Origin: a virus
Taxonomy: Duplodnaviria; Caudoviricetes
Virus record (IMG/VR): IMGVR_UViG_3300031998_000045
Location: 22,751 to 86,750 of that record
DNA length: 64,000 nt
Direction: 5' to 3' (one strand)
In this document: positions 4,697 through 61,710 of the stretch, piece by piece
Position numbering within the stretch: the stretch's first letter is position 1
How the letters are laid out: each line of letters opens with the position of its first letter
Position numbers and translations under genes: made by a program
Notes under the pieces: generated by a model
Told to the model about the DNA's origin: nothing
Database searches by the model: none
The model's input: only the letters and a program-made list of their open reading frames with translations

Positions 4697-4746
4697 AAGA
4701 CTCATTTTGTTTCATTCCGTAAATGATAGTCTGCTGCATGAGTCTT
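4697..4746 (-). ncRNA. Stem/CAGCA RNA copy E2 with Arg(ACG)-like anticodon loop
   Basis: AAGACTCAT-GCAGCAG...TCAT-TTACGGA-ATGA...ATGAGTCTT. Confidence 0.7.
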
Positions 4747-5794
4747 AAAATGATGTAAATTCAAATTCTTCATAAAACTATTTATTTTTGTTCAACTATA
4801 CAAAATCATAAAAACGATTAAAATGTTTTTGAACATATATATCTTGCTTGCATGGTTTTGGAGACAACTAATCTTTAATAATATATAATGACCAGCCAGC
4901 TTTTAGTATCTCATTTCGTTTTATATTATCCCTATTCTAAATAGCTTTCAATGATGATCGTCTATCATTTGATATCTATTTATAATGCCATGGACCATTC
5001 CATTGTATAGCAATTTTTTCATCTACTATTAAAACATCCACATCCCATCCATTAAAAATAGGACTATTATGCTCAACATGTTTAAATGATGATTTGCATA
5101 AGTTATAAAATTTTATTTCACATTTTGATCGTCTTTGTTCATTCTATTTTGCAATTGATCGTCTTCCAGCCAAAGAAAGCTTCTATTTAGTTTCCTATGA
5201 CATAAATTCATTTCGATGTGTTTTTACATACTATTTGCATTCAAATGAGCAACAACTGCTTTTATCAACATCTAAAAACCATTTTTTACATTTTATACAT
5301 TGTTTAAATCTATAGACTTTATTCTAAGAACGAGCATTCATATGACTTTTTATTTTAACAACAATATATTTTTTATTAGTTGTTTGTTGTTTTTTAATTG
5401 TTTGTTGTTTTTTAAGTAACTATGGTTTATGTGAACGTCCTAATCCATTTGCGCAACTTCTTGAACAAAATCGTCTTATATATTTTTTACCTTTTAAAAC
5501 TTTTTCATATTCATAATCTGTCAAATCTAACTGATACGGCTTTTTACAAATAGGATTTTCACATATAAATGTACGTGGTTTTCGTGTTAATTCACGCTAT
5601 ATTTTTTCATGAGTAAGCTTTTCAGCATGTTTTCGATTCATTATTAAAGAACCGCGTTTCTATGCTGCAATATTTGCTTCTCTTTTAGGATTGCATTTAC
5701 ATGTTCTCATATGCGCAGTTGCAATTCCTGCCATTCGAAATGAACCATCGGTTTCAAATTCTTTTCCACAATATTTACAATGTATTATTTTCAT
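4745..5794 (-). CDS. Zn-finger + PD-(D/E)XK-type (DUF559/Vsr-like) putative homing endonuclease, 349 aa, code 15 only
   Basis: Absent from ORF track. 1050-nt frame from ATG 5794 to TAA 4745 with about 13 in-frame TAG and no TAA/TGA; N-terminal CKYCGKEF; C-terminal GWDVDVLIVDEKIAIQWNGPWHY; AT-rich; GTAAATA upstream. Confidence 0.8.
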
Positions 5795-5833
5795 ATTTTT
5801 TATTTACATTGTTAGCGGATATTTAAATCGAAT

Positions 5834-5913
5834 TGCGGACGGTCGAGTTGCACGACTAGGTTTCCCAGAAAGCGTATGAGACTTTCTACGCTGCTCCGCG
5901 TTGTTTCATCCGC
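5834..5913 (-). ncRNA. Degenerate tRNA-like RNA with CAU anticodon
   Basis: Acceptor GCGGATG/CGTCCGC, D-like ACGC-GGAGCA-GCGT, AGAAAG/CTTTCT stem around CTCATAC, GG-GAAA-CC variable arm, GTCG-TGCAACT-CGAC T arm; no encoded CCA. Confidence 0.55.
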
Positions 5914-5939
5914 CATAAAATTCTTCAAAGACCAAATGC

Positions 5940-5998
5940 AAGACGCGTGTTGGGTTTAAGATTAACTGTCTTATCCAAGCAGCTGCTGTGTGCGTCTT
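5940..5998 (-). ncRNA. Stem/CAGCA RNA copy E3 with Asn(GUU)-like anticodon loop
   Basis: AAGACGC-ACACAGCAG...TAAGA-CAGTTAA-TCTTA...GCGTCTT. Confidence 0.7.
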
Positions 5999-6795: not shown

Positions 6796-6800
6796 ATGAA

Positions 6801-7162
6801 TGGACGTGGGGAGAGTCGAACTCCCGTCTTGCTCAGTCTTTCATGCACCTTGTTCACATGCTTATGCTCTGCTTAGTTTCTCTCTGCTGCAGCAAGAGCA
6901 ATGACTCGCAGGAGATCTTGTGGAAATGACTGACCTCAAGCGCTTCCACATCTTGAGGACGTTCCGCCAAGTGATGATGCAGCTTCCGGTACCAGCGGAC
7001 GGTCTCCCAGAGCTGCAGGTTGTCTTACAGATCGCTTAGATCAAGCAGCCATAGCGTAGTCATACTCGCCATTTAGTTGTTTGCTTGGTTTTGAAGTGGA
7101 CTAAGCTCCACTGCATGCATAGACACACAATTGATTCTGCCAATCGATACCGTGTCACGCCC
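6801..7162 (-). ncRNA. ssrA: Phage-encoded tmRNA
   Basis: 5' GGGCGTG pairs with 3' CACGTCC-A (G3.U70), T arm GGGAGTTCGACTCTCC, 362 nt, internal tag frame ...GGC GAG TAT GAC TAC GCT ATG GCT GCT TGA (GEYDYAMAA). Confidence 0.9.
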
Positions 7163-7172
7163 TTGAAGTTGA

Positions 7173-7247
7173 TGGCGTCTCCAAGTGGAGTTGAACCACT
7201 CTTGCAAGTATGAAAAACTTGAGTCCTAGCCGATAGACGATGGAGAC
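7173..7247 (-). tRNA. tRNA-Glu(UUC)
   Basis: Cloverleaf GTCTCCA/TGGAGAC, loop TTTTCAT, CCA end. Confidence 0.9.
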
Positions 7248-7261
7248 ATCTTGAAATTGTC

Positions 7262-7337
7262 TGGTCACGGTGACAAGACTTGCACTTGCATGCCACTGCT
7301 TAAAAGGCAGTTGCTAACCTATTTTAGCTACACCGTG
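7262..7337 (-). tRNA. tRNA-Lys(UUU)
   Basis: CACGGTG/CACCGTG, loop CTTTTAA, T loop TGCAAGT, CCA end. Confidence 0.9.
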
Positions 7338-7341
7338 AAAT

Positions 7342-7418
7342 TGGTACCAGTGATGGGATTCGAACCCATACTGAAGTGATTTTGAGTCACGTGCCTCCTG
7401 CCTTTGGGCTACACTGGC
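7342..7418 (-). tRNA. tRNA-Leu(CAA), short variable arm
   Basis: GCCAGTG/CACTGGT, loop CTCAAAA, TTCGAAT, CCA end. Confidence 0.85.
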
Positions 7419-7424
7419 ATTGAC

Positions 7425-7484
7425 AAGACGCGTTTAGCTTGTATTCATTATCAGTGAATTGCTTTAGATTGCTGTGTGCGTCTT
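7425..7484 (-). ncRNA. Stem/CAGCA RNA copy E4 with Ile(GAU) anticodon loop
   Basis: AAGACGC-ACACAGCAA...ATTCA-CTGATAA-TGAAT...GCGTCTT; the loop is the canonical Ile loop. Confidence 0.75.
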
Positions 7485-7494
7485 CAAGAAGAAA

Positions 7495-7569
7495 TGGAGC
7501 CCGCAGAGAATTCCGAGATCTCAACCTGCTGCTTACAAGGCAGCCGCTCTGCCGTTGAGCTATACGGGC
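7495..7569 (-). tRNA. tRNA-Thr(UGU), atypical T loop
   Basis: GCCCGTA/TGCGGGC, loop CTTGTAA, T arm GAGA-TCTCGGAAT-TCTC, CCA end. Confidence 0.8.
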
Positions 7570-7584
7570 GCTTCATTTGAAAAT

Positions 7585-7673
7585 CGGAGAGAGGAAGATT
7601 CGAACTTCCGGGCCACATAGCTGCAGCCAACTCCTTAGCAAGGAGCCTCTTTAGACCGCTCAGACATCTCTCC
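7585..7673 (-). tRNA. tRNA-Ser(GCU)
   Basis: GGAGAGA/TCTCTCC, loop TTGCTAA, long variable arm, G73. Confidence 0.9.
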
Positions 7674-7679
7674 AAGAAC

Positions 7680-7768
7680 TGGCGGATGCGAGAAGATTCG
7701 AACTTCTGTGCCCTTTCAGGCAAACGGTGTTCAAGACCGCCCCGTTATGACCTCTTCGGTACGCATCC
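7680..7768 (-). tRNA. tRNA-Ser(UGA)
   Basis: GGATGCG/CGCATCC, loop CTTGAAC, long variable arm, GCCA end. Confidence 0.9.
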
Positions 7769-7779
7769 AGTCAAAAGAC

Positions 7780-7901
7780 TTGAAGCTAGGGATCCTCAGC
7801 GTATAGGCATGCCCGACGGGGATAACCGAGCTACGGCTACAAAGATTCCCTCCATGCTGTGGAGAACCCGTGCTGCTACCATGTTCAGCTGCTAGCTTCA
7901 A
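7780..7901 (-). ncRNA. Candidate structured RNA displaying CAGCA in loops
   Basis: 10-bp closing stem TTGAAGCTAG/CTAGCTTCAA; internal GCTG-AACATGGTAG-CAGC and CTCC-ACAGCAT-GGAG hairpins. Confidence 0.5.
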
Positions 7902-7909
7902 AAATAGAC

Positions 7910-7973
7910 AAGACTCATTGTGCTTGTTCTCCGAATATGGTGGGGAATAAGCTGATGCTGCTGTTTGAGTCTT
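7910..7973 (-). ncRNA. Stem/CAGCA RNA copy E5 (anticodon-like loop ambiguous, possibly CAU)
   Basis: AAGACTCA-AACAGCAG...GCTT..TTCCCC-ACCATAT-TCGGAGAA..AAGC...TGAGTCTT. Confidence 0.65.
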
Positions 7974-7997
7974 AAAATATCAAAATGGGCAATTGAC

Positions 7998-8957
7998 TTA
8001 AATTCGTTTTTCAAAAATTTTCTCAAGCTATCTGACAACATTATTTTTAGGACGAATTCGTATTGTCATATAACCGTGCTTTAATGCAATTTCGTCTTTT
8101 TGTTTATCTCTACTATTTCCTTCAGAATGCCAGTATTCACCGTCAATTTCAATAAATAATTTCTCTGAAGGAATATAAAAATCAACAAATCGTTTCATTT
8201 CATTAAAGCAAAATTCTTTTTGATGCTCAAATATGATTTTATGCTCAGTCAACCAATCAAATGCAACCTGTTCAGGATATGTCATTTTCTTTTTATTGCC
8301 AGCAAGTTTCCTGTTTGGATGTTTTTCTGGATGATCATGATACAGCTATTTCTTCTTTTCAGATACTTCTTTACGTTTCTCTATTGTCCAATATTTTGAA
8401 CAACATCTATTGACAATAGTACCATTAGCTATTTTAGTTTTCATTGTTTTTGAAACAGAAAGAGCATTTCTCATAATACGTTCATCTGTTTCTTTCGTCA
8501 AGCCTTTGTTCCAAGAAGTTCTTTTTTGAATCGGATGAATCTAATGATTATGCTCAAACAACTAAGCTCTAGTTTCAAATATCAAGTTGCATTGTTTACA
8601 TTGCCATGTTCCTCTTGGAGCTCTAGCTTTAAGATGTTGTTCATGAATATTCATCTATTTTCTAGATCTTCTTTTTTTGCTTATCTCAGCAAAGTCATTC
8701 TACTAAGCAGAATAAGATCTTCTACATGAATCAGAGCAAAATCTTCCAGTTCCATAGCTTCCATCATGTTCTTTGTTGCATTTAGGATTTTCACATTTGA
8801 ACATTCCATTTGGAAGTCTTCTAGCTTCTTTCTTCAAAAGATCATCTTTTTGCTTTTTTGACTTATATTGCTTATAACTTTTGCAAGTTCTTTTATGACC
8901 CTAAAGAGAACGGCCATTGTCAAATTCTTTTCCACATGTACATTTATAAATTTTCAT
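7998..8957 (-). CDS. Zn-finger/NUMOD-like + DUF559-type putative homing endonuclease, 319 aa, code 15 only
   Basis: Extends track ORF 8028-8285. 960-nt frame with 8 TAG; C2H2-like WQCKQCNLIFETRA*LFEHNH*IH, WNKGLTKETD motif, FVDFYIPSEKLFIEIDGEYWH nuclease. Confidence 0.85.
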
Positions 8958-8998
8958 ATTCTTATTTACTCAAGTGCATTACCAAACTCATCTAAAAT

Positions 8999-9077
8999 TG
9001 GTCAGGGCGAGCCGTGCTGCCCGGCTACCTATGGGACCCAAACCCATCGTGCAGAAATGCTGCTATACCACGCCCTG
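8999..9077 (-). ncRNA. tRNA-Pro(UGG)-derived RNA with rewritten D and T loops
   Basis: CAGGGCG/CGCCCTG-A-CCA acceptor, ATGGG-TTTGGGT-CCCAT anticodon arm, but D region GCAG-CATTT-CTGC and T loop GGCAGCA (no GG, no TTC). Confidence 0.7.
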
Positions 9078-9089
9078 TAAAATAAAAGC

Positions 9090-9202
9090 AAGACACATTT
9101 TTACGTGCTCTACCAGCTGAGCTACGAGATCTAAGATCTCGGCAAGATTCGAACTTGCGACCCCGAGCTTACCAGGCTTGAAAATACTGCTGTGTGTGTC
9201 TT
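9090..9202 (-). ncRNA. Stem/CAGCA RNA copy E6 enclosing a circularly permuted tRNA-Thr(GGU)
   Basis: AAGACAC-ACACAGCAG-...CAAGC-CTGGTAA-GCTCG-GGGTC-GCAAG-TTCGAAT-CTTGC-CGAGATC-TTA-GATCTCG-TA-GCTC-AGCTGGTA-GAGC-A...GTGTCTT. Confidence 0.8.
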
Positions 9203-9210
9203 GAAGAATC

Positions 9211-9300
9211 TTTGACTGCTGAAACCGCTCACTCATAAGTTTTCCGAGCCTCCTGTTAAGTAAGGCTCAGGTTGGATTCGAACCAATAGCAGCAGTCAAA
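9211..9300 (-). ncRNA. Second permuted tRNA-like (YrlA-like topology) RNA
   Basis: Closing stem TTTGACTGCTG/CAGCAGTCAAA around T arm TTGG-TTCGAAT-CCAA, closed hairpin CTGAGCCT/AGGCTCGG and D-like GAGTGAGCGGTTT. Confidence 0.55.
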
Positions 9301-9319
9301 AAATGAACAATGAAAATAA

Positions 9320-9404
9320 TGGTGGACCCGAAGAGAATCGAACTCTCACGCGAAACCGCACTGCTTGCAAAGCAGCTCCAATCACCACACTCTGACACGG
9401 GCCC
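9320..9404 (-). tRNA. tRNA-Ala(UGC) with long variable arm
   Basis: GGGCCCG/CGGGTCC gives G3.U70, loop TTTGCAA, extra arm GCGGTTTCGCG, TTCGATT, ACCA end. Confidence 0.75.
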
Positions 9405-9420
9405 ATAAAGCCAATAAAAC

Positions 9421-9467
9421 TAGATGCCAATTTTATTCTACAGATACAAACCTGCTGTAAGCATCTA
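9421..9467 (-). ncRNA. Stem/CAGCA RNA copy E7 with Tyr(GUA)-like anticodon loop
   Basis: TAGATGC-TTACAGCAG-GTTTG-TAT-CTGTAGA-ATA-AAATTG-GCATCTA. Confidence 0.65.
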
Positions 9468-9593: not shown

Positions 9594-9797
9594 TCAAAGC
9601 TCATCTGGACAGAAGCCGGTTATCCGAGTCTCATTCAGCATCCGGCTCTCTTGTATCTTCAGAGACATGTAGTTGCACAGCTCTTCATTGAAAGCTCGCC
9701 GGATAGACTTTGGAACACATGAAGCAACTCGCTTCTCAGCACGTATGATCTTTGCCCGGAGCTTTTCAAGATCAGTCTTGTCTTCATTCTTCTTCAT
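9594..9797 (-). CDS. Hypothetical protein
   Basis: ORF with GGAGA RBS. Confidence 0.65.
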   Translation of the reverse strand: MKKNEDKTDLEKLRAKIIRAEKRVASCVPKSIRRAFNEELCNYMSLKIQESRMLNETRITGFCPDEL

Positions 9798-10296
9798 GGC
9801 GCTTCTCCTAGATGCTGTTGTCTGAGATCTTCTTTGAAAGACTGATCAAGCTCTCAGAAAGCTCTACTATCTTGATGTAGGTGTCCATCCAAGGGCTGAG
9901 TGTCTGACTTGAAGTGTTCTGTGTCTCTTCCTGCTCAGGCTTCTGCTTCGGAGCTTCAGCTGTCTCTGCATTCTCCTTCAAGATCTTGTACTGTCCGTTC
10001 CAGCGCTTCCACCATCCAGACTCGTCCAGCTTCTTGCAGTAGTCTTCACCCTTCTTGGTGAGATGCTTCCATCCAGCATACTCCCTTGACTCGCTTGCTG
10101 GCACAGCATAGATGAGTCCGTCTTTCTTAAGGCGGTACACAATGTTGCTGATCCGCTTGCTGGCTCGCTTTGAGCCAAGAGCATCTACCATCTCAGGCCA
10201 GTCGTCAGTGAATCCGCCAGGCGGCACCATGCATGGATGTCCACCTGCGTAGTAGTCAAGCATGAGCAGCTCATTCTTCATTGTCAAGTCATTCAT
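9784..10296 (-). CDS. Putative winged-helix DNA-binding protein
   Basis: SNIVYRLKKDGLI...HLTKKG pattern; TAG at 9808 read through to TGA 9784 under code 15. Confidence 0.5.
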
Positions 10297-17052: not shown

Positions 17053-17164
17053 TGCTCTCTCCTCAAATTGCTTAGGTCCATCTGGCTAGAAAAACCCAGC
17101 TCTGAGAAGTGGCCACCACACCACACCTCAGAGCTGGGCACCGCTTTCGCTAGCCTGACACCAC

Positions 17165-18538
17165 TCAGGCCGCGAACTTCACCACCTCACCGAAGGCTTT
17201 CACATGCTCGTCGGTAGAATCTTTCGTGAGGATCCAGAGGACCGGAATGCCGGGGTCATCCTTGGCTTCCATGGTCTCGATGTAGCCGTCTGTGAATATC
17301 ACCAGGGCATCCACGTCCAAGCTGTTGACCTTGATGTAGTCGAGGATCGGACGCAGACGGGTTCCGCCGCCGCCGCAGACCTTGAAGTTCTTGTTGGGTC
17401 CCTCAAGGAAGGGGTCGTCCTGGGTGTAGTGCTGGACATCTTGGATGTCCCGGTCACATTGGATCACATCGATGTCGTAGGCCGAGAAGCTCTTGGCTAT
17501 TCCCTTGACCTCCGAGAGGAACTTGACCATGTCCTCCGAGGTAGACCCCGAAGTGTCCAGGCCGATGGCGAGCTTCAAGGCGTTGCCCTCATGGGAGGGG
17601 AGGTAGGTGCCCGTGTGGACGAACCGGCGGTTGGGCTTCGACCAAGTGGTGTCGAACCCCGAGGTGCGGGTTGTGAACTGCACCAAGACCTCCTTCCAGG
17701 ATATCTCAGGCTTCAGGAGGTTTTCCACCAGGCTCTTCAGGTGGCCGGGGAGAGATCCACGGGTCCTCTCAATCTGCTGGGCGGCTGCCACCGCGGCTGA
17801 CCGCACCTTCTCAGATTCCCTAGGGTCCACATTGGGGGTGAAGTCCTCGTCCTCACCGATCTTGCCGTAGCGGTCAGAGTACTCTCCAGCACCAGACTCC
17901 TTGTTAAGCTCATCAGACTTGCCGATGTGCTTGTCAAACTGGCCTTTCAGCTTTTCATTAGGCTGTCCAGGCTTGGACATGCCAGACATTCCCTTGCTAG
18001 GACCAGACTGCTGTGTTCCATTGTTGCCGCCTTTGTCATCGCCACCAGGCATCTGGCAGTTCTGCTTGGCCCCCTGGAGGAGAAGCTCATAGTATTCCTC
18101 GGCGCTCTTCTCAGCCGGGAAGCCATAGTCGGAGGGGAGGAACAGCTCTTTCGGAGGAATCAGACCGTCAGCCTTCAGGATGCCGTTGACCTCCATGTCA
18201 GCCGCAATGTTGAAGATGCTGAGGTCACGCCCCTCAATACGGAGGGGATGCATCATCACGGCGTGGTAGACCTCGTGGCCGAGGACAAACATCTGCTCCT
18301 CACGGGTCAGGCTGGAGAGGAAGGCGATGTCGAAGTAGATCGTGTGGCCGTCTGTGCAGGCCGTTGGGTTGCGGTGGTCACGGGTTGGGATCAGGTCCAT
18401 CTGCATGGACACAGACCCCACAAAGGGGAACATGCGCTGGAAGTTCATGCGGGTCTCAGCGAGGATTCCGTTGGCATTCCTCTTGAGCTCCTTGAGCTCC
18501 TCGGGGGTGAGCGTATTGTTGGTGGTGTTCTTTTTCAT
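17165..18538 (-). CDS. DUF2201-type metallopeptidase-like + vWA protein
   Basis: TACTDG, HEVYH, NIAADMEVN; C-terminal LDTSGS, GGGGT, IFTDG. Confidence 0.9.
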   Translation of the reverse strand: MKKNTTNNTLTPEELKELKRNANGILAETRMNFQRMFPFVGSVSMQMDLIPTRDHRNPTACTDGHTIYFDIAFLSSLTREEQMFVLGHEVYHAVMMHPLRIEGRDLSIFNIAADMEVNGILKADGLIPPKELFLPSDYGFPAEKSAEEYYELLLQGAKQNCQMPGGDDKGGNNGTQQSGPSKGMSGMSKPGQPNEKLKGQFDKHIGKSDELNKESGAGEYSDRYGKIGEDEDFTPNVDPRESEKVRSAAVAAAQQIERTRGSLPGHLKSLVENLLKPEISWKEVLVQFTTRTSGFDTTWSKPNRRFVHTGTYLPSHEGNALKLAIGLDTSGSTSEDMVKFLSEVKGIAKSFSAYDIDVIQCDRDIQDVQHYTQDDPFLEGPNKNFKVCGGGGTRLRPILDYIKVNSLDVDALVIFTDGYIETMEAKDDPGIPVLWILTKDSTDEHVKAFGEVVKFAA

Positions 18539-18624
18539 AGGTGGTGTTCCTTGGTGGTTGGTTGGGCTTGCGGTATAGATTGTATCAAAACTCAGGTGGT
18601 TCAGCCACTTAAGATCTTTGATTT

Positions 18625-18656
18625 AGCTAAGGTCCCTCAGATGAGGGACCTTAGCT
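18625..18656. repeat. Perfect 15-bp inverted repeat between AAA gene and next promoter
   Basis: AGCTAAGGTCCCTCA-GA-TGAGGGACCTTAGCT; probable terminator or processing hairpin. Confidence 0.6.
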
Positions 18657-35630: not shown

Positions 35631-35690
35631 CTTCTTCTCTCCTTTGCATGATAGATCTTATCAAAAGTCTATAGTCTTAGCCACTTAGCC

Positions 35691-39971: not shown

Positions 39972-39972
39972 G

Positions 39973-41976: not shown

Positions 41977-42765
41977 TCAGTAGCTTAGATACTTTCCGTC
42001 AAGAAGATTTTCAAGAAGATGCTCATTTCTCAAGAATGAGAGTATTGCATCAAGCTTGACATCATCAACTAAGAGAAGTTCTCCCTCATCTAAGTGGGGT
42101 CTGACAACTTCTTCAAACGCTTGCTCTGCCTCTTTGACTCGACGCCAAGTCATCCGTGCAATGCTCTCAAACATCTCTGACTTGAAGAAGTCTGCTCTCT
42201 CTTCAATTGTCATGACAGCTTCAGGTGAGTCATATATCTCAACATTCCACAAGCTCTTGTTGTTGTCAAAGCTGACTTCATACTCCATGTCATCGTCAAT
42301 GTTGACGACTTTGAACTTTGCGATCTCCATGTAGCTGCGGTCAACATCTTGTGCAAGGCTTGTCTCAAGCTCACTGACATCTATAGACCTCCAGCCGACA
42401 TCTCTCGCTTGCTCTGCAATGCATAGCCAGCATTTAGAAGCTGGACGAGAGTATCCAAAGCAGAAAGCACTTCTCAGGTCTAAGTTTGCAAATGCTGCAG
42501 GCTTCTCCTCAGTTGGAGCAGCATTGCCTTCAGATTCATCTTCGGTGCTTTCAGCATCTTCATCACCAGATGGTGCTATGTCATCTTCTGATGTGTCTGC
42601 ATCTTCAGCAGTGTCTTCAGCATCTGCAGGCGGGGCAATCTCATCTTCTGCAGCTGGAGCATCTTCTGCAGTGTCTTCTGGCGCTGCCGATATGTCATCA
42701 TCTCCAGCATCGTCATCTGCTTCAAGAAGCTCAGCTTCTTTCTGTCTAGTTCTCTTAGTTGTCAT
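41977..42765 (-). CDS. Hypothetical protein with acidic Ala/Asp/Glu-rich N-terminus
   Basis: Track ORF; GTAAATA just upstream. Confidence 0.75.
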   Translation of the reverse strand: MTTKRTRQKEAELLEADDDAGDDDISAAPEDTAEDAPAAEDEIAPPADAEDTAEDADTSEDDIAPSGDEDAESTEDESEGNAAPTEEKPAAFANLDLRSAFCFGYSRPASKCWLCIAEQARDVGWRSIDVSELETSLAQDVDRSYMEIAKFKVVNIDDDMEYEVSFDNNKSLWNVEIYDSPEAVMTIEERADFFKSEMFESIARMTWRRVKEAEQAFEEVVRPHLDEGELLLVDDVKLDAILSFLRNEHLLENLLDGKYLSY

Positions 42766-42868
42766 AAAACTATTTACTTAGCAATATTTAAAATATACAA
42801 ATGCCGCTTAAGACAGCAAAGGTGAGAAGATGTCTTCTCACCTTTGCCATCATGCAGCATATGCCACA

Positions 42869-44244: not shown

Positions 44245-45213
44245 TCATGGCTGCGGCTTCTCAAGCAGATCTTCAAAGGATGCAAGCACTTGGCTCTCAA
44301 AGCTGTCTCTTTCTTCTTTGATTGTCTTCTTCCATGGCAAGAAGTCTTTGAGAGCTTTGTCATATGTGTCAATGCCAAGCTGAACTTTCTTGCATATCTC
44401 TAGAATGTTGAAGAAGCCATACTCGATCTTCCACTTGCTTGGGATGGCAACATCAACATCATTCCAAGCTGAGCCTTCTCTTGAAGTGATCACAACTAAG
44501 TCTCTCAAGCATGCTTCTCTTGGTATGCGGTCTCTTCCTGGATGCCAGCCTAGATCTAAATACACTTTTGCAATGTCCATGATGCTAGCCATCTGCTCAG
44601 TGCTGAAGCCGGTCAAAGGCATGAACTTGAGATGCGGCATAGATGAAGCTACTAGCTGTGTAACGCTCTGTTCTTTTGCTGGATTGTACAGAACTAAGTC
44701 AGCTCTCTTGCATTTTGAAGCTGGAGCAAAGAACTCATCAGAGATCGGGTCTTTCAGCGGTCTGATGTTCTGGACTCCCATGCTCTTGCAGAAGCTCTCA
44801 GCATAGAAGCTCTGGATGAAGTTGCAGTCAATTTTCTTAGACTTCAGAAGATCAACTAGATGCATCTTTGACAGGTCGGGGTCATTGACAAGCATGAATG
44901 TGTTGACCGACAGCCACCATAATGCTCGTTTTGACTTGACTATCTGGTCAAGAACACCAAGAGCTATTCCCTCTGGGATGACAACAAGTGTGTCTTCGCT
45001 GTCAAGTATAGATGTGACTATCTTGACATTGTACTTCTCTAGCCCAGGAATCACACTTTGTGAAGCGTCTATGTGCATCACGGCTGCATCATATCCATTC
45101 TTTGCCAGAATGCTGCATGCTTGATAGATGCATTCCGGGCCGCCAGTCTTCTTAGCTATGCATAGAAACACCACTCTTCTGCATCTGCTTGCCTCGTATA
45201 CTTCAGAGTCCAT
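44245..45213 (-). CDS. Putative GT-B glycosyltransferase
   Basis: TGGPECIYQ, YNPAK, AKVYLDLGWHPGRDRIPREA. Confidence 0.75.
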   Translation of the reverse strand: MDSEVYEASRCRRVVFLCIAKKTGGPECIYQACSILAKNGYDAAVMHIDASQSVIPGLEKYNVKIVTSILDSEDTLVVIPEGIALGVLDQIVKSKRALWWLSVNTFMLVNDPDLSKMHLVDLLKSKKIDCNFIQSFYAESFCKSMGVQNIRPLKDPISDEFFAPASKCKRADLVLYNPAKEQSVTQLVASSMPHLKFMPLTGFSTEQMASIMDIAKVYLDLGWHPGRDRIPREACLRDLVVITSREGSAWNDVDVAIPSKWKIEYGFFNILEICKKVQLGIDTYDKALKDFLPWKKTIKEERDSFESQVLASFEDLLEKPQP

Positions 45214-45288
45214 GTCTATAATGTACAAAAAATGCTGGACATCTGTCCAGCATTTTTATTGTGTGTTTATTTTTTTTTCAAGTGCAGA

Positions 45289-46050
45289 TCAGAAGAAGTC
45301 AAACTGCAGCTGTGTCGTGTCTCCGGTGTCTTCATTTCTGACAACAGCTGTAGCTGTGCCATAGCTGTTCTTGGCATCATTGCTCATCATCTGCAGCAGC
45401 TCTGCCAGAGCATTATGGTCAAAGAAGTATGCAGTCTGTCCATTGTATTCAAAGACATCATCATCCATCCAGCCGCCATTTGCATCTAGATATGCTGCAA
45501 GATTATTGAATGATCCGATCGGAGGAGTCATCACAGTGCCATTGACATCAATCTCGCAGTTGACTTGACCAGCAGCTTCACAGATGCTCTCATCTTCAAG
45601 CAGGTCTTCTGACTCTTGGAATCCAAAGCGGCTCAAGCAGTGTCTTGTCAGCTCTCTGAACTCAGTGAATGCTCTTGGATTCCAGTCTCCGCACATTTCT
45701 GCCGACTTGGCACTCTTCAATGCGCGGTAGACATATATTGCTTTTTCATCTGAATACGCATATTCTTCCCAGACAACAGTCAAGCGGTGGACTACATTTC
45801 CATTGTGCGGAGCGCCCTTTGATATTGGGCAATATTCAAACACAGCAGGATCTTTTTCATTCCACCAGTCTTCTAGCTCTTGGAATGTCTTCATCTGTGC
45901 AAGACGTCTAACAACAACTAGTCCCTGCTTTATGAACTCGGCGCATGAGATCTAGCAGTACTCAGCAATGTCTTCATTGAGAGCTCTAAGCTGCTTTCTC
46001 CAGTATGCAAGAGCTTCACAGATGTACTTTCTTGAATATCTCTTCTTCAT
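45289..46050 (-). CDS. Hypothetical protein, 253 aa, one in-frame TAG
   Basis: ATG 46050 (MKKRYSRKYICEALAYWRKQL) is in frame with track ORF 45289-45894 through one TAG. Confidence 0.7.
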
Positions 46051-46071: not shown

Positions 46072-46644
46072 TCACTTCAAGCTTGTAAACTCACCCTTTG
46101 TGCTGTTCTCAAGCTCCCAGTAGAGAGATCTGAACTAGACATCAAATGTTGATGTGTCACCGCCGACATATGTCAGCTGTGTGTTGCCCACAGACTTGAC
46201 ATCTACACCGACAAACTTGTATGTCTGGATGACAGTCTCGTTGTCCTTGTCAAACAGCTCAAGACGTATAGTAGAGTTGTGGACACCTCTGTCACCTTCA
46301 AACAATGAGCCTTCAGATATTGCAGCATTCATTGTCTTGTTGAGCCACATGAGGAATAGACGTCTATTTGTGCCGTTCACATCATCAAGCACGGTCATTG
46401 TGTGGTCCTGGTCCATTATCATCCTTGTTGGGACGAGCGGCATCTCGTATCCCTTGAATGACACATTTACATATTCAATTGACCGCTGTGGAATGCTGAA
46501 TGTCTGGCCAAAGATCAGCACATCATCCATTTTAGCATCAATGTCTGAATATCCGGTCACAATGCTGATCTAAAACTGGTTAGTGCAGCGTATAGTGTCT
46601 GCAGTTGCAGCATTCAAAAACCGGTCTAAAGAGTTAACAGCCAT
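46072..46644 (-). CDS. Tail tube protein (T4 gp19-like), 190 aa, 2 in-frame TAG
   Basis: RCTNQF*ISI...; C-terminal STFDV*FRSLYWE matches the gp19 TFDVTFxYxxW pattern; GTAAATA upstream. Confidence 0.8.
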
Positions 46645-46682: not shown

Positions 46683-47168
46683 TTATTTACACTTTGACTA
46701 TGCGGACTCTCTAGATCTCTCTTCATCAAGATACTCTTTCAGCTTGTCTAGGAACTCAGCAATGTCGATGTACTCTTGAACAAATTTGGCACGCTGCTCA
46801 TCATCCATCTCTTTGATGTACGGCACTCCGGCATCATCAGCTCTTGGATGCATGAACAGATAATGTCTAAGCCACATGTCTATCTCATGCCGGTGCTTGC
46901 CCAAGAAGCCAGGCAATGACTTCCGCCTCTTCGGCTTTGGAGTGTCTTGAGGCGCATCCAGCATGCTCTAGAGAAGGCTCTGCTCAGCAGTCTTAGGCTT
47001 CAAGAGCTCAGCTTTCTTCTGACGGCGCTCTCTTCGTCTCTGCTGCCGGTCAGCCCGCTTCTAGCTTTTAGACTGCTGAGAAGCTGAAAGTGAAGGATCA
47101 GGTGATGTAGAGCTCTCATTGTCCGCTAGACCGCATGAAAGCTGTCCGTCAACATATGGTTCTTCCAT
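46683..47168 (-). CDS. Hypothetical protein, 161 aa, 3 in-frame TAG
   Basis: ATG 47168 after GTAAATA, in frame with track ORF 46698-46964, ends TAA 46683. Confidence 0.65.
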
Positions 47169-47213
47169 GTCTATTATTTACACATTTCAACATGCGGCAA
47201 AGTAAATATAATT

Positions 47214-48101
47214 ATGAATTTCATACAGTCATATCTAGCTAGCAGCATGTCAATGCTGAATGAGTCATTTTCAGCACTTCAAGAGGGAATGCATTTCCAT
47301 GACTACATAGACAATGCTAAGAGAAAGCTGATGTCAGCATTCACTGACATGAATGCTGACTAGGCTAGCAAATGTGTGCGGACAGCCATCGATGCATTTG
47401 GACCAAGCTGGCTTTGGAATGATGGCAAACGATGGAAGCTTCTTGTGAAAGCTGTCACTATTGCATGCGATGAATGTGAGACTGCATATGATGCACAGAA
47501 GTTTCTAGAAGATGAGTCAAAGATGCTGGCAAGAAGAATGCAGTTTCTTGAAGCATAGAGCGACAGCCCAAGCATAGCTCAAGAAATAGCTGCTATGTCA
47601 TATGATGAGCTGCTAGACAAGTCTGATGCGGCTATGAGCAAAGAGACTGACTAGCCAGCTGATGCATCAGACAAGCACTACTCTATTGTGCCAATTGAGT
47701 CATATGAGCAGTTCAACTAGATGTTCGGTGGAAATGTGACTGGCTGGAATGGCAGCGCATGGTGCCATGCAAACAGCAGATCTAGCTATGACTCATACTG
47801 CCCAGACAATGCTAAGCGTCAGATGTTTGTGTTTGCTCAAGACGGCTGGCAAGACATAGCACCGTCATCATCTGAACTAGACAGCCAAAGTCCATATGGC
47901 ACGTATGGACTGTCACTTGTCGCAGTTGTTGTTGACACTGCAACAGGACGGCTAGTGAATGAGAACACTAGATGGAACCACAAGAAAAGTCCGTTCAACG
48001 GCTTAGTTGACAATGCATTTGACGACAGCTGGCAGCTTCTAGACAAGATGCTTGGCTTCAATGCTCATGAAGAAGTGATGAAAGTCCTTGGTCTAAGATA
48101 A
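47214..48101 (+). CDS. Hypothetical protein, 295 aa, 4 in-frame TAG
   Basis: ATG after GTAAATA joins track ORFs 47376 and 47721; WCHAN, YGLSLVA, TRWNH motifs. Confidence 0.75.
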
Positions 48102-48103
48102 TG

Positions 48104-48832
48104 TCAGATCTTGAAAATCAAAGATGATCTATCTATATCTATGAACTTTGTCTTAGCTGGAACTAGCCATTCTTTTTCTGACATGTTGATCTCATTGATG
48201 ATTGTCTACGGTCTTATTCCTATTTTAAATGGCGAAGACATGTCATCTAGAATGTCTTGTTTTTTCTTGAGAATGCTGCATATCCAGCTTTTCTAGTTGC
48301 ACTAATTCAGATATTCATCATCTTCATCTTCATTGACAGCATAATGATGCTTTACTGCAGCCGTAAGATCATCATCTAAGTGCCATGCCCACTAGTTGAG
48401 AACATATTTGAATATGAATATGAATTCTGACAAGAACAGCAAAGGCTTGCTGCAGCTTTGAACAGTAAGCACGCAGTCTCCAAAGTTTACTGCTACATCA
48501 AAATCTGTGCTGAAAGACATTGAACTTTTCAAATTTGAATATGATGTTGCTAGAATTGAATTCTTTTCAGACTAAAATAGTCCTCTGTACAAAGGACCAT
48601 TGCATATGCTGCCAAATGACTTTATGCATCTATTGATGATTGCATCAGCTTCAACCCCAGCTATCTTTTTCTCAAATCTGTTGTCTTTGGGAATTGTGCA
48701 TAGAAACATAAGATCATCAAATGTAGCACCATCCGGAGAAACTTCTAGAGAAGCACAATTTTTTAGACATAGCTAGTCAAAAAAATTGACTAACTTAGTA
48801 TTTTCTTGCTATATATGCTATGCTAATTCCAT
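48104..48832 (-). CDS. Putative ADP-ribosyltransferase (R-S-E type), 242 aa, code 15 only
   Basis: Absent from track; frame open except for TAG; GPLYRG, MSFSTDFDVAVNFG, SEKEWLVP. Confidence 0.65.
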
Positions 48833-48865: not shown

Positions 48866-49333
48866 TCAGCCGCCTTTGAGCTGCTTCTCAGTTATCACAT
48901 GGAACTCATATCCCTTTGACTTTGCCAATGCTCTGGCGGCTTCCCATTTGCTCTGGTTAGTCATCCAAGTGAGCATTGTCTTTGGATTGCTCTTTGCTTT
49001 GCCTGTAGGAGGCTTAGTCTCTGACTCAGGCTTTATCTCAACCCAGATTGTCTTGTGGACTGGGCCGACTTTCACAACCATTGAGAAGTCTATGAAGTAG
49101 CGCCGGACTTTGCCCTTTGCTCTGTCAAAGTACTTTATAGTTGTTCCTTCATATCCCCATGACACAACGTTTGGATTGCGGTCTACATACATCATGAAAG
49201 ACAGCTCAAGAGAAGACTTGTAGATGATGTGCTTGTCTTTTCCAGCATACTTCTCTGGGTGCTAGGGGATGAACTCCCCAGTTGCAGCTCGAGAGTACTT
49301 CCCTCTTCTGCTCTTGTCAGCGACATGTATCAT
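48866..49333 (-). CDS. Head completion nuclease (T4 gp4 / TnsA-like), one in-frame TAG
   Basis: GEFIP*HPEKYAG...IIYKSSLELSFMMYVDRNPNVVSWGYE...YFIDF...EIKP. Confidence 0.85.
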
Positions 49334-55594: not shown

Positions 55595-56776
55595 TCAGTC
55601 TTTCTCTACTTGTGAATAGTACTTCTTCAATACGGCAAACAACTTTGCTTTGTCAATGCCATCTTCTTCTAGAGCTTTGCTGTCAAGACGGTCTATGTAG
55701 CTCTTTATGTAGTCAAGTTTGCTCTTCTTCAAAGTCTGGACAATGTCATCTTCATCTTCCAAGCTGCTGTTCATGTCTAGAGACACTTGGTAGTCTGGCA
55801 GCAGCTCTTCATATGGCAGTGCACTTGAGATCTTCTTGCTTATCTCTAAGTCATCATTCAAGCTTATGTCAACATCATAGACTTTCTGGACAATGTTTCC
55901 AGCTGCTGGGCTGAAGTCAAACTTGTCTATGCCTTCTTCAATGATGTCACTGCATCTGAGCTTGACATGCTTTGGCACAGAGTCTATCTTGCAGAACTCA
56001 TATGAGCCGTCGGCTTTGATGACATAGAATCCAGTGTCATAGCCGGTGTCAGCTGTTGTCTGCTGGCAGGGACTTCCCACAAATATGAACTTACGTCCTT
56101 TTATAGCCATCTCTTTATGCTGGTGTATATGTCCAGCAAAGACAGTCCCTCTTGGAACAGCTAAGTCTACAAAGTTTGTCACAGACTCGTCAGCTTCTAG
56201 CTTGGCGCTGCTTCCAAATTCACTCTCAAGCTCATCTGAGGCACTCTGAGAGGCTTCTGCTCTCTTGGTGTTAGAGTCTATGTAGCTCTGAGCTATGAAC
56301 TTAGATGACACGTCAAAATGTCCAAAGACATAGTCATATGAGCTCTTCTTAAAGCTAGAGATGTCTCCAAGCCATGGAATCATGACAGCTTTCTTGTCAT
56401 TGACAGCAGCTTCAGCCGTGTGGTCTATGACATGCACTTTTGGATTGTCTTTGAATATGCTGACTGAGTTGACATCAACCGTGTTCTTGTTGAACAAGTC
56501 ATGATTTCCGAGTATCATGTAGACATCAGCTAGTGAAGCTATTGCTTTCAGACATCTATGAGCTATGTTCAATGTGTCAACAGTCAATGCATTCCGCTAG
56601 TGGAAGAAGTCACCGCAGAATATGACATTCTTGATGCTTCTCTTCTTGATCTCATCAACAATGCATTTCACTGTCATTGCGCACATCTTCTGCCGGAGAG
56701 GAGAGTTCCCTTTGACTCCAAAGTGGATGTCTGTGAACACTAAGACATCTCCGTCTATCTATATTGTCTCTGCCAT
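55595..56776 (-). CDS. Recombination endonuclease nuclease subunit (gp47/SbcD/Mre11-like), 393 aa, 2 in-frame TAG
   Basis: N-terminal FTDIHFG and CGDFFH*RN motifs lie upstream of track ORF 55595-56587; GNHD, GHFD, GHIH. Confidence 0.9.
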
Positions 56777-58597: not shown

Positions 58598-59044
58598 TCA
58601 CTTCACCTCAATTGCAATGACAGGTGTTGCCTTCTCTTCCAGCTTCTTCACCGGAAGCTGGATCTTGAGAATGCCGTCTTCTGCCTTGGCATCAATGGCA
58701 TTCACATCAATGTCATTTGCCAGAGGGATGGTGAACTTGTAGCTCTGATATGATATGCCGCAGTAGTCCATGTTGTCATCTTTGACCTTGTTCTCAGCGC
58801 CACATCTAACGGTGAGATTGCGGTCTTCGACTTCAACTTTCACTTCATCCTTGCGGAATGGAGTGTACACAACTTCTATTGTGTATCCAATGACCTTCCC
58901 GTTCTCGTCACGCTTGGTGATCAAGTTGTGGGGCCGGTTTATCACAGGCTTCAATCCACGATTGCCTATTGATGACAGCTGGTAGTTGAACATTGCGTCC
59001 ATCCAGTTGAACATGTTGTCCATTTCATTGAATAATCTTAGCAT
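58598..59044 (-). CDS. Small heat shock protein (Hsp20/IbpA-like)
   Basis: Alpha-crystallin features: FTIPL...IDAKAEDGILKIQLP. Confidence 0.9.
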   Translation of the reverse strand: MLRLFNEMDNMFNWMDAMFNYQLSSIGNRGLKPVINRPHNLITKRDENGKVIGYTIEVVYTPFRKDEVKVEVEDRNLTVRCGAENKVKDDNMDYCGISYQSYKFTIPLANDIDVNAIDAKAEDGILKIQLPVKKLEEKATPVIAIEVK

Positions 59045-59136
59045 TGTCTGTTCCTTTGTTTAATGTTGTTTTTCAATCATTGTCTTTCTTCAGCTAGATG
59101 GAATCTTTTCTCACCTAGCAAATTATATTTTACCGC

Positions 59137-60213
59137 TTAGAAGCCAAGCTCTGCAAGAAGATCATCATCTGAGCTTGGAGGCGCAGGCTTGTCTTCAGAC
59201 TTTGCTGGAGCTGGCTCGTCTACTAGCCCCTCTTCATCAGGGTCCGTCTCTAAGCTTGTGTCATTGTCTTCAGCTGGTGTGTCATCAATGATAGAGTTGA
59301 GGTCATCTGTCGAGATGTCATCAGCTGAAGTGCTAGTCTCAGCTGCTGGATTCTCAGGTATTTTCACTGGAGCCGGCTTAGAGTATGTGTCACTCTTGTA
59401 TACAGGAATGTCATCATCTTCCGGGATGTCATCATTTGTCACCACACAGAATTTTGTGTAGAAGTCATTGATCTCTTCTTCATCCGAAGGGCAGAAGTAT
59501 GTTGCATCAAACGGAAAAGAGGCTTCAATGTTCTTGCTGTTGATTGCTGGAATCTCTTTTGGCTCAGTTGAGAAAGTTATCTTGTCAATCACATTTCTAG
59601 AGAATGTTCCGCCAGACTTCTTCGGCACTTCTTCACGAGTGACATGGATCAAGCAGTTCACTGCCTTGCCGCCGTTGAACACTGGAACTTCTCTCACCTT
59701 CTTGTCAATGAGCTCTCTGAAGTTCATGTACTGGTCCTTGTCATTGAAGATGATGACCTTGAACTTGCCGTTGTTCTTCTCGTAGTTGGGGTCATTCTTG
59801 ACGTACACCGGCACTACTGCTTCAAAACGCCGTCCAGCTGAAGATGCATGAGTGCGCGCAGTGGCATCGGTCTTTCCAGACTCATTGTAGATAGACCACT
59901 GCTGGTTCACGTAGTTGCAGATCTTGCATGAAGATGACTTGTTTCCCTCAGTCTCTACCCATGGAGTATGAGCTGGGCATACAACCTTGACCATTCTGTT
60001 CTTGCCAGTCTTGGGGTCTTTCTGCCAGCCAGTGTGGACAAAGCGTGTGATGTGTGGATCGTCTCGACCGCTCTTTGAGCCAAATGCAAGAAGCCTGACA
60101 CTGTAGTAGGTCTTCTTGCCATCAATGTCCTTGCATGGCTGCAAGAACATCTCTAGATTTGTGTTCTTCTTCGGAGCACCGATTATGTTCGAATGCTTTG
60201 GAAGTGTTGACAT
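59137..60213 (-). CDS. Single-stranded DNA-binding protein (T4 gp32-like)
   Basis: VRLL, VCP...CKIC, NDP..E.NNGKFKV, acidic C-terminal tail DDDLLAELGF. Confidence 0.8.
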   Translation of the reverse strand: MSTLPKHSNIIGAPKKNTNLEMFLQPCKDIDGKKTYYSVRLLAFGSKSGRDDPHITRFVHTGWQKDPKTGKNRMVKVVCPAHTPWVETEGNKSSSCKICNYVNQQWSIYNESGKTDATARTHASSAGRRFEAVVPVYVKNDPNYEKNNGKFKVIIFNDKDQYMNFRELIDKKVREVPVFNGGKAVNCLIHVTREEVPKKSGGTFSRNVIDKITFSTEPKEIPAINSKNIEASFPFDATYFCPSDEEEINDFYTKFCVVTNDDIPEDDDIPVYKSDTYSKPAPVKIPENPAAETSTSADDISTDDLNSIIDDTPAEDNDTSLETDPDEEGLVDEPAPAKSEDKPAPPSSDDDLLAELGF

Positions 60214-60290
60214 GAATGTGCACATGTTTGTTTCTTCTTTCTTTTCTTTGTTGATGTGTTGTAATTATGTCTCTGCTCAATGCAGATTGT

Positions 60291-61016
60291 TTAAATCTTA
60301 CCTGATGTAGACTTATTCTCTTTGATCTTCTTCATCAGAAGATCGGTAAACTCAAGAGGGTTGACCATTGTCTTCTTCTCTTGCAGAAATGCTTTGTTGA
60401 CATCAGAATGGTAGATCTCATACCATCTCTCAACTGGCTGCAGCTCTATTCTAGAGAAATAGTCAAGCTTTGGAACAGCTTTGTTGAACTTGGGAATTGC
60501 TGCAAAATAGTACAATGATATTCTGCCTGAGACAATGTAAGCTGCTATCTGCTTTGTCTCAACTAGCATCCGTATGAAGTCTTTAGCTGAGAAGAAGTCC
60601 ATGTCAACTGCTTCATGAGCTATGTTTGATGCTGACTTGACAAACCATCTGTATATCTTCTTCAGACGAAGAGTCTCTCTGTTGCTGTCATTGTACTTTG
60701 CTAGAAGATTTGAGCTGGTGAGACATATCTCAATGTTCTTGGCACTGATGCCGTTGTCAACACAGAACTTAGCATATGGAATGACATCAAAGCCATTCTT
60801 CTCTGCCATTGCAGCAAAGTTGTCAAATGCTTTCTTGTGTGGATTGTACAGTGACTTCCCAGACATCAGCATCATGGGAACGTCTTTCTTCACATTTGGC
60901 TTCTTCAAATGGATAAAATATGCAAACACTTTTGCAAGATGCGGCCCATCAAAGAAACGAATATTTCTTTGCTGAGGCTTTTGCTCTTGGTCTTGTGTAT
61001 TTTGCAAATCTGACAT
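60291..61016 (-). CDS. Hypothetical protein (gp59 helicase-loader position)
   Basis: Synteny just upstream of SSB; no motif recognised with confidence. Confidence 0.55.
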   Translation of the reverse strand: MSDLQNTQDQEQKPQQRNIRFFDGPHLAKVFAYFIHLKKPNVKKDVPMMLMSGKSLYNPHKKAFDNFAAMAEKNGFDVIPYAKFCVDNGISAKNIEICLTSSNLLAKYNDSNRETLRLKKIYRWFVKSASNIAHEAVDMDFFSAKDFIRMLVETKQIAAYIVSGRISLYYFAAIPKFNKAVPKLDYFSRIELQPVERWYEIYHSDVNKAFLQEKKTMVNPLEFTDLLMKKIKENKSTSGKI

Positions 61017-61710
61017 CTTTCAAGTAGTCCTTGTCTTTCAACAATGACTATATCTTACTTATGAAGAACCCCTTGAACACACTTGGGCACAGTCTGAACA
61101 GAAACTTCAGAAAGTCCATTATGTTCATGTCATAATACTCAAACAGCTGAGCCATGAACTCATCATCATCTAAGATCTGCAGTATAGTGCTTCGCTTTGC
61201 AGCATCAGGCTGGTCTGGAGTGAAGTCTTTGTGCTTAGACAGAAGAAGCTCATAGATGCTTTCATCTTCAAATGTGTCAATGAACTTGTCATCTGAATAG
61301 AAGAATCTTGACTCTGAGACATTTGATGTGTTCTCAGCAAATGGAACATCAGGTGCATCTTTCTTCTTAGACGGGGCTCGCTTGACTGCAGCAGACTATG
61401 CATTCTAGTCAAGCGGCAGCTTAGCTTCAGGCTTCTTAGCCCTCGGCTTCTTCTAGATGGGAGCTTTCTTTGGAGAAGGCACTGGAGACTTCTTGCTTCT
61501 TGGCAGATGTCTGCCGACAGTAGGCTTCTTTCTAGACAGTGGCTTTCTAGTCTTCTCTTTTTTAGCAGTCTTGTCTGCTTTGTCATTCTTAGACAGCTTT
61601 CCAGCTTTGTCATTCTGCTTGAATGGTGTCTTGACAGCTTCTACAACCTTTGCCAGGACATCTTTGAAAGAAGACTTTCTGCTCTTCTCATCCTATGAAG
61701 TGTTTGCCAT
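60949..61710 (-). CDS. Lys/Pro-rich basic protein, 253 aa, code 15 only (5 TAG)
   Basis: Absent from track; ATG 61710, TAG at codon 6, K-rich low-complexity N-half and ordered C-half; overlaps next gene by 68 nt. Confidence 0.65.

Follow-up and report, generated by a model that had tools for sequence, protein, structure and literature searches.

In-frame TAG codons, probably read as glutamine, mark one gene class in a fragment of an uncultured T4-like phage genome

Is TAG a stop codon or a sense codon in a given phage, and if it is read as sense, in which genes and for which amino acid? These questions are raised by a 64,000-nucleotide stretch of viral DNA (Duplodnaviria; Caudoviricetes), bases 22751–86750 of a single 86,750-bp IMG/VR virus record (IMGVR_UViG_3300031998_000045), hereafter the window, for which an original prediction, made from the sequence alone, held that TAG had been reassigned, most likely to glutamine. 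The record is linear, without a terminal repeat, and has a GC content of 45%. CheckV puts the completeness of this 86.7-kb contig at 30%, and profile searches of it for the gp23 capsid, terminase, release-factor (PF00472) and GlnRS/GluRS (PF00749) families were negative; the contig therefore represents only part of a larger genome. Hidden Markov model (HMM) matches of T4 type were obtained for a tail tube protein (phrog_45), a gp4-like head closure protein (phrog_218) and SbcC and SbcD (gp46/47), and further matches for a DnaB/gp41-like helicase, a primase (gp61 homologue) and a GroEL. The nearest GenBank phages, a Pelagibacter phage, cyanomyoviruses/cyanophages and Campylobacter T4-like phages, are 22–30% identical in the tail tube protein and the helicase; a megablast search of 22 kb against GenBank phages returned no match, and an IMG/VR scan with the DnaB protein alone recovered nothing. 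The codon-level evidence was drawn from loci of relatives in IMG/VR and JGI.

The whole contig was called under four codes with a gene caller that uses a codon log-odds model trained on long code-11 open reading frames (ORFs). Under code 11 the called genes cover 76.7% of the contig with a median length of 133 amino acids (aa); with TAG as sense, coverage rises to 82.0% and the median to 162 aa. The corresponding values are 70.4% and 138 aa with TGA as sense and 77.7% and 130 aa with TAA as sense, and TAG is thus the only one of the three stop codons that improves the gene call when read as sense. The re-calling of genes that had been proposed as a check of the original prediction is therefore in its favor. 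The 121 genes called with TAG as sense end in TGA (81 genes) or TAA (40 genes). Longest-ORF coverage failed to tell the codes apart, where the codon-score caller succeeded, because antisense frames open once TAG is read. Long frames interrupted by TAG only do occur antisense to real genes (17109–18644, plus strand, with 13 TAG; 37122–38297, minus strand, with 12 TAG), and frame length by itself is therefore no evidence of a gene.

Twelve genes of the window, carrying 51 in-frame TAG codons between them, are intact only with internal read-through. Their coding scores are all positive, they occupy gaps that are otherwise empty, and their final stops are all TAA or TGA; the latter had been noted in the original prediction, correctly, but it is true by construction. 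The prediction's count of at least 14 genes missed or split by the supplied ORFs hinges on the counting rule, as 12 genes require internal read-through and five others have TAG as their first stop, with TAA or TGA coming 2–18 codons later. What it had reported at the level of the sequence is otherwise accurate. The five motifs that it quoted, all on the minus strand, are in place with TAG (asterisk) inside each: FIP*HPEKY at 49247–49273, GDFFH*RN at 56591–56614, NQF*I at 46567–46581, FDV*FRSLYWE at 46114–46146 and FETRA*LFEH at 8550–8579. The TAG-only frames in empty gaps are present, the last of them reaching as far as 61755 (60949–61755), and the split ORFs join in frame (28457–28849 with 28880–29377, and the three pieces of 47214–48101).

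Frames of this kind could in principle be decaying pseudogenes or chance open frames in which TAG is only a stop, and the antisense frame at 17109–18644 (plus strand), together with the selfish nature and atypical composition (GC 27–31%) of the two TAG-richest genes, both homing endonucleases, would be compatible with that. Such an explanation is nevertheless hardly credible, considering that AT-rich sequence runs for as many as 349 codons without TAA or TGA (the chance of such a frame at 27% GC is ~1e-12, as estimated from base composition), that essential genes are hit (tail tube, head closure, SbcD), that TAG positions are kept among relatives with protein similarity on either side, and that start motifs lie directly upstream of the TAG-bearing frames. 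The reading of TAG as a sense codon in these genes is thereby supported.

For four of the 12 genes a function is supported by HMM matches, and in each of them conserved parts of the protein are lost under code 11. The head closure/completion protein similar to T4 gp4 (48866–49333, minus strand; 155 aa; phrog_218, E = 3.5e-45) has one TAG, at 49262. The tail tube protein similar to T4 gp19 (46072–46644, minus strand; 190 aa; stop TGA; phrog_45, E = 2e-17) has TAG at 46570 and 46135, with invariant residues on both sides of them, and code 11 strips 24 N-terminal and 20 C-terminal residues from it, including positions that are invariant in the family. In the SbcD/gp47-like nuclease (55595–56776, minus strand; 393 aa; phrog_100, E = 4.6e-47), TAG is found at 56759 and 56597; the code-11 ORF starts past both of them and as a result lacks metal-binding motifs I (DIHFG) and II (GDFFH), and the second TAG is also TAG in two relatives (L003 and L004). 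The fourth is a homing endonuclease with zinc fingers and a DUF559/Vsr-like nuclease domain (7998–8957, minus strand; 319 aa; 8 TAG; stop TAA), which matches PF04480 (E = 6.6e-7) and phrog_559 (E = 2.9e-9) and has 2,103 homologues, the closest of them full length and 68% identical. Read-through is also evident in a gene without assigned function downstream of the DnaB-like helicase (60949–61755, minus strand; 268 aa; 5 TAG; stop TGA), for which orthologues were found in seven relatives and one match in a large protein set. Its TAG at 61048 is TAG in four relatives, and the ~30 residues beyond are still similar between genomes, from which it follows that translation passes this codon; the possibility that this conserved TAG is a true stop was rejected on the same ground.

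The identity of the inserted amino acid can be approached through homologous positions. Of the 99 homologues of the gp4-like protein in the large protein set, 31 are at least 70% identical and cover the TAG site, and 29 of these, including one that is 98% identical, have glutamine there. In IMG/VR relatives the codon at this site is CAA or CAG at six loci, AAG at one and TAG at one, and since relatives carry CAA/CAG, the glutamine is not an artefact of gene calling under code 15. Among 142 homologues of the tail tube protein, the first TAG site (NQF*I) is glutamine in 37 of the 39 closest that cover it, and the nearest homologue (85% identical) has glutamine at both sites; in metagenome loci the first site is TAG or CAA and the second CAA or CAG. 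The ten nearest homologues all have glutamine at the gp4 site and at the first tail tube site. The syntenic relatives are themselves rich in in-frame TAG, and in the tail tube genes of relatives TAG codons sit on columns of conserved glutamine, such as that of the N-Q-F/Y motif.

A broader alignment combined 164 TAG sites of relatives, compared with the residues of the window, and 12 TAG sites of the window, giving 200 aligned residues. Glutamine is enriched among them 7.1-fold, lysine 1.7-fold and glutamate 1.05-fold; in a BLOSUM-based log-likelihood, glutamine scores +45, arginine +7, glutamate +3 and lysine +1 nats, a lead for glutamine of ~38 nats over every other residue. When only the 11 sites of the window itself are considered, with the ten nearest homologues for each, glutamine scores +3.4, glutamate +0.06 and other residues less, and in the eight variable TAG columns of the homing endonuclease at 7998–8957 glutamine is the top residue, with 3.7-fold enrichment. 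The data sets from the gp4-like protein, the tail tube, the syntenic relatives and this homing endonuclease are independent of one another, and all four favor glutamine.

A potential decoder is present in a relative (G001; 91 kb, CheckV completeness 50%) that encodes a gp4-like protein 81% identical to that of the window and shares with the window the gene order GroEL-SbcD-SbcC-primase-gp4. The only tRNA of this relative has the anticodon CUA, and it displays U1-A72, G2-C71, G73, G10 and a five-nucleotide variable loop. The pair U1-A72 with G73 marks bacterial tRNA-Gln and is used by GlnRS and by the GatCAB amidotransferase. Homologue columns, codons of relatives and this tRNA(CUA) agree, and on the strength of that agreement the comparison supports decoding of TAG as glutamine, as had been proposed. 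The tRNA gene (L021:1440–1500) is preceded by TTGACA and, after ~17 nt, TATGAG, as seen by eye; this looks like a promoter of the host sigma-70 type that ends at the tRNA, and it would fit transcription by host RNA polymerase.

The TAG-bearing genes are not a random sample of the genome, and two gene classes can be separated by their upstream motifs. The first class lies behind an early box, present in ~50 copies on the contig (52 matches with at most two mismatches, 49 of them on the coding strand), which has the form TTAAGTGGCTGAA, nine nucleotides, TTTTGATAnnATCTAT and then AAAGGAGA followed by ATG, with a strong Shine-Dalgarno site. The second class lies behind the heptamer GTAAATA, which has 16 copies on the contig, 13 of them on the coding strand; most are followed by an ORF start within 80 nt, and eight are just 5–9 nt ahead of ATG. 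The T4 late promoter is TATAAATA, read by gp55/gp33, and, judged by its location and its resemblance to that sequence, GTAAATA would be a late promoter. The 45 genes directly behind an early box comprise 6,355 codons and six TAG, five of which fall within the final 30% of the frame as read through, whereas the ten genes of at least 100 aa directly behind GTAAATA comprise 2,805 codons and 41 TAG, evenly spread (Fisher p = 9e-16). In relatives, too, the heptamer is found ahead of TAG-rich ORFs (394 aa with 14 TAG, 427 aa with 7 TAG, 295 aa with 12 TAG). The claim that TAG is reassigned accordingly holds for one gene class and not for all genes, as genes behind the early box keep the standard code. 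In two distant relatives (L008 and L012) TAG is found even in GroEL, helicase and primase genes, which indicates that the extent of recoding varies within the clade.

The position of the heptamer relative to the start codon may have consequences for translation. Where GTAAATA is 6–9 nt from ATG, there is no room for a Shine-Dalgarno site, which suggests leaderless or near-leaderless late mRNAs; examples of this close spacing are at 5795–5807, 8958–8969, 47169–47181, 47202–47216 and 42766–42777. Early genes, unlike those adjacent to GTAAATA, have a strong AAAGGAGA site.

Taken together, these data lead to an explanation that we consider very probable as a whole, namely that the window is part of the genome of a large, uncultured T4-like phage with two reading rules, in which TAG specifies glutamine in the GTAAATA class, the suppressor tRNA is encoded off the contig and the code acts as a timing lock. 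The ~50 early genes behind near-identical boxes, being written in the standard code, would be translatable by an unmodified host. The second class, mostly behind the T4-late-like GTAAATA, includes the genes for the tail tube, head closure, a baseplate-like protein and a pair of homing endonucleases; the SbcD gene and the one downstream of the helicase also count among the TAG-bearing class despite having no motif directly upstream. The in-frame TAG codons of this class would be decoded as glutamine, the likely decoder being a phage-encoded amber suppressor tRNA-Gln(CUA) that, as in the syntenic relative, would be located on the missing part of the genome. Full-length late proteins would then appear only once the suppressor is expressed, so that recoding could serve as a timer.

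A number of observations do not sit easily with this scheme. The coupling between motif and recoding is imperfect in both directions: SbcD and the genes at 60949–61755 and 48104–48832 carry TAG with no GTAAATA directly upstream, and two genes that do follow the heptamer (41977–42765 and 42869–44203) have no TAG. Several TAG sites are at variable columns where homologues have K, E, T, G or R. In one relative (L028), the tail tube gene (1892–2455, JGI AUXO018065989.1) has TAG at a column that is glutamate in ten of ten others; this is the sole such case seen, and it could reflect a recent GAG-to-TAG change tolerated as glutamine. A composition test for glutamine depletion found no depletion in the TAG-bearing genes overall and is not diagnostic, and the three AT-richest of these genes have nearly no CAG (2 CAG, 20 CAA and 29 TAG). 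Finally, neither a tRNA(CUA) nor RF2 nor GlnRS was found across the 86.7-kb contig, which is ~30% complete.

Some of these points could be taken to mean that TAG is sense for a residue other than glutamine, such as glutamate, lysine, leucine or pyrrolysine. Besides the TAG at the invariant glutamate column, distant tail tube homologues have glutamate more often than glutamine at the first site (76 versus 41), lysine is the second most common residue at TAG-aligned positions (1.7-fold), and ARAGORN names any tRNA with the anticodon CUA 'Pyl'. Against this, glutamine is ahead of glutamate, lysine and arginine by ~38–44 nats in the clade and by more than 3 nats at the window's own sites, the enrichment of glutamate is merely 1.05-fold, and at the two conserved sites the nearest homologues all have glutamine and relatives have CAA/CAG codons. 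In the tRNA of the relative, U1-A72 and G73 with a normal five-nucleotide variable loop make, by the identity rules, the body of neither a Glu, a Leu nor a Pyl tRNA. The glutamate, lysine, leucine and pyrrolysine readings were rejected on the likelihoods and the tRNA features, and we regard a residue other than glutamine as quite unlikely.

The missing decoder deserves separate consideration. The observation that the window has no suppressor tRNA(CUA) was borne out and extends to the remainder of the contig: ARAGORN and Rfam identify ten tRNAs and a tmRNA, among them tRNAs Arg-UCU, Ile-UAU, Glu-UUC, Lys-UUU, a type-I tRNA with anticodon CAA, Thr-UGU, Ser-GCU, Ser-UGA and Ala-UGC. Seven of these, from Glu-UUC to Ala-UGC, form with the tmRNA an RNA cluster at 6798–9404 (minus strand). 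It is conceivable that the phage itself encodes no suppressor tRNA and that TAG is read by a suppressor of the host or of a co-infecting phage, or by an unusual RNA of the 4.3–9.5 kb cluster, the more so as 86.7 kb that hold ten tRNAs and a tmRNA yielded no tRNA(CUA) and as surveys detect a suppressor in just 40–60% of TAG-recoded phages (10.1101/2021.08.26.457843; PMC13037316). However, the contig being a fragment (~30% complete), the missing tRNA says little; a syntenic relative has a canonical tRNA(CUA), and the RNA cluster contains no hairpin with a CUA anticodon loop, and so we consider this arrangement unlikely. Its more specific form, in which a phage without a canonical tRNA(CUA) decodes TAG through the cluster itself, would be a route not described for recoded phages. 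The cluster does hold scaffolded anticodon-loop RNAs, a permuted tRNA, an odd type-I CAA tRNA and a long-armed Ala tRNA together with the tmRNA, and such decoding appears very unlikely. Permissive Rfam scans of the contig and a scan of the RNA cluster for hairpins with an NUCUARN loop revealed no hidden suppressor, folds of six scaffold RNAs in the cluster showed no CUA loop, and a blastn search of the contig, with the tRNA(CUA) of the relative as query, found nothing similar. A suppressor tRNA-Gln(CUA) encoded on the missing part of the genome thus remains the preferred reading.

The RNA cluster has several unusual features of its own. The tmRNA (6798–7162, minus strand; Rfam, 95 bits) adjoins the tRNA cluster and encodes the tag peptide GEYDYAMAA, which ends in TGA. 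Two tRNAs that Rfam finds and ARAGORN misses, at 7265–7337 and 7498–7569 (both minus strand), have, by eye, the anticodon loops CUUUUAA (Lys-UUU) and CUUGUAA (Thr-UGU), respectively. The tRNA at 7342–7418 (minus strand; 77 nt) combines the anticodon CAA, for the Leu codon UUG, with a short variable arm, G1-U72 and A73, and the 85-nt tRNA-Ala(UGC) at 9320–9404 (minus strand) combines G3-U70 with a long, class-II-like variable arm. Between 4318 and 9467 (minus strand), small RNAs with a closing AAGAC...GUCUUG stem and a CAGCA bulge are interspersed with the tRNAs and both homing endonuclease genes, and one of these RNAs (7425–7484) has an unpaired AUCUAAA stretch. A copy of GTAAATA at 9504 (minus strand) is upstream of the cluster, ahead of a scaffold RNA (9421–9467) and tRNA-Ala, and part of the cluster may therefore be late-transcribed.

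A further complication is that a handful of early genes have TAG as their first stop, with TAA or TGA following 2–33 codons further on. In an early-box gene at 2475–3302 (minus strand) the first stop, a TAG at 2484, lies inside the next promoter box, with an in-frame TGA two codons later, and the same pattern, with extensions of 3–18 codons, is seen at 9784–10296, 33388–33717, 35464–35649 and 37648–38331 (plus strand). The early box consensus includes a TGA (within GGCTGAA) as well as TAG-ACT-TTT-TGA in frame (for example at 2445–2514, minus strand), and the upstream genes that end inside the next early box do so at TGA in 16 cases, at TAA in four and at TAG in three. A few early-box genes probably still stop at TAG. 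From these few cases we suggest that TAG terminates such genes early in infection and that later it would allow only a short, harmless extension. There is perhaps an even chance that TAG has a dual meaning within one infection depending on the upstream motif, as a terminator for a few early genes and as glutamine in GTAAATA genes.

The remaining TAG-bearing genes are less well characterized. A homing-endonuclease-like gene (4745–5794, minus strand; 349 aa; 13 TAG; stop TAA; GC 27%) had no match in Pfam and PHROG searches and is weakly paralogous to the homing endonuclease at 7998–8957, with zinc-finger and D..E.DG..WH nuclease motifs in common; GTAAATA is 7 nt ahead of the ATG of the former and 6 nt ahead of that of the latter. 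For the tail tube gene the heptamer is 40 nt upstream. The gene at 28457–29377 (plus strand; 306 aa), behind a GTAAATA at 28442, has a single TAG at 28847 that links two code-11 ORFs, and its matches to baseplate gp10-like proteins are weak (PF21939, E = 0.0023; phrog_958, E = 8e-4). No function could be assigned to the others. The gene at 41235–41759 (minus strand; 174 aa; 3 TAG; stop TGA; coding score +43) occupies a stretch left empty by code 11 and is part of a unit that begins behind GTAAATA at 42771. That at 45289–46050 (minus strand) has one TAG, at 45952, if the ATG at 46050 is its start; the upstream extension fills a 177-nt gap after the tail tube gene and is plausible, and a search for homologues against which to check it found none. 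Two late genes have the heptamer 7 and 6 nt ahead of ATG, respectively: one (46683–47168, minus strand; 161 aa; 3 TAG; stop TAA) is absent from the records of five relatives, and the other (47214–48101, plus strand; 295 aa; 4 TAG; stop TAA), which code 11 breaks into three or more ORFs, has a homologue with an open 303-aa frame in a relative (G002; E = 6e-12). The gene at 48104–48832 (minus strand; 242 aa; 8 TAG; stop TGA; GC 35%) has no relatives in IMG/VR; this TAG-rich, AT-rich orphan has a sub-threshold match to DRAT, an ADP-ribosyltransferase (E = 0.0017), as its only match. ADP-ribosyltransferases are used by T4-like phages to modify host proteins. A Pfam search with the large late proteins encoded at 42869–44203 and 44245–45228 gave no match. 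Immediately downstream of a TAG-bearing gene, four tandem paralogues (38564–41195, minus strand; 27–56% identical) contain no TAG; three of them match phrog_35892, and all have the appearance of leucine-rich-repeat proteins.

For this phage and its relatives, gene calls under code 11 are wrong, with tail, head-completion and nuclease genes truncated and several genes missed. Since coding density rises little overall, density-based screens may overlook genomes that are partly recoded. The clean split between early-box and GTAAATA genes makes the clade convenient for testing the published idea that recoding times late expression. What the locus adds is this clean sequence marker of the gene classes, a low overall level of recoding and the finding that homing endonucleases are the most TAG-dense genes, an indication that selfish genes can come to be tied to phages that recode.

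Phage recoding of TAG to glutamine with suppressor tRNAs has been described in crAss-like and Lak phages and in six further gut-phage clades, including large phages of cattle, where late structural and lysis genes bear most of the recoding and early genes avoid it (10.1101/2021.08.26.457843), and code 15 in gut phages has been confirmed by metaproteomics (PMC9523058). As in these phages (crAss-like, Lak, Garnet, Amethyst, Sapphire, Agate), TAG here aligns with glutamine while TAA and TGA remain stops; only a fraction of the genes is affected, with structural and late genes recoded, replication genes variably so and early genes standard; and a suppressor tRNA(CUA) occurs within the clade. Accessory genes of the code change (RF2, aminoacyl-tRNA synthetases), of which the fragment studied here shows none, are optional and carried by a minority of such phages. 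Unlike in those phages, the gene classes are separable by upstream motifs (~50 early boxes versus GTAAATA), and only ~13% of the window genes have an internal TAG, compared with clade means of 26–71% (10.1101/2021.08.26.457843), a figure to be read with the main virion module missing from the fragment. Recoded jumbo phages, surveyed in the rumen and in the pig and human gut, encode a tRNA(CUA) in ~60% of cases and RF2 in some (PMC13037316). They resemble the present phage in being large, in coming from the animal gut and in having TAG in hallmark genes, which in their case include a T4-type Portal_GP20; the contig studied here gains ~5 points of coding density in a crude call and might be missed by the 10% rise used as the criterion in that survey (PMC13037316). 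The phAss-1 group of the human gut (PMC10607447), whose genomes exceed 100 kb, use an alternative code and have many ORFs with internal TAG, is similar as well, but no close sequence relation to it was seen. The likeness to T4 extends to the gp4, gp19, gp46/47, gp41 and gp61 homologues and to a TAAATA-containing motif directly ahead of structural genes. T4 itself uses the standard code, and here the motif is GTAAATA, often at 6–9 nt from ATG, where, if it indeed acts as a promoter, it would leave little or no leader. In every testable feature the phage fits the known code 15 picture, and it is a clear further example of a documented habit.

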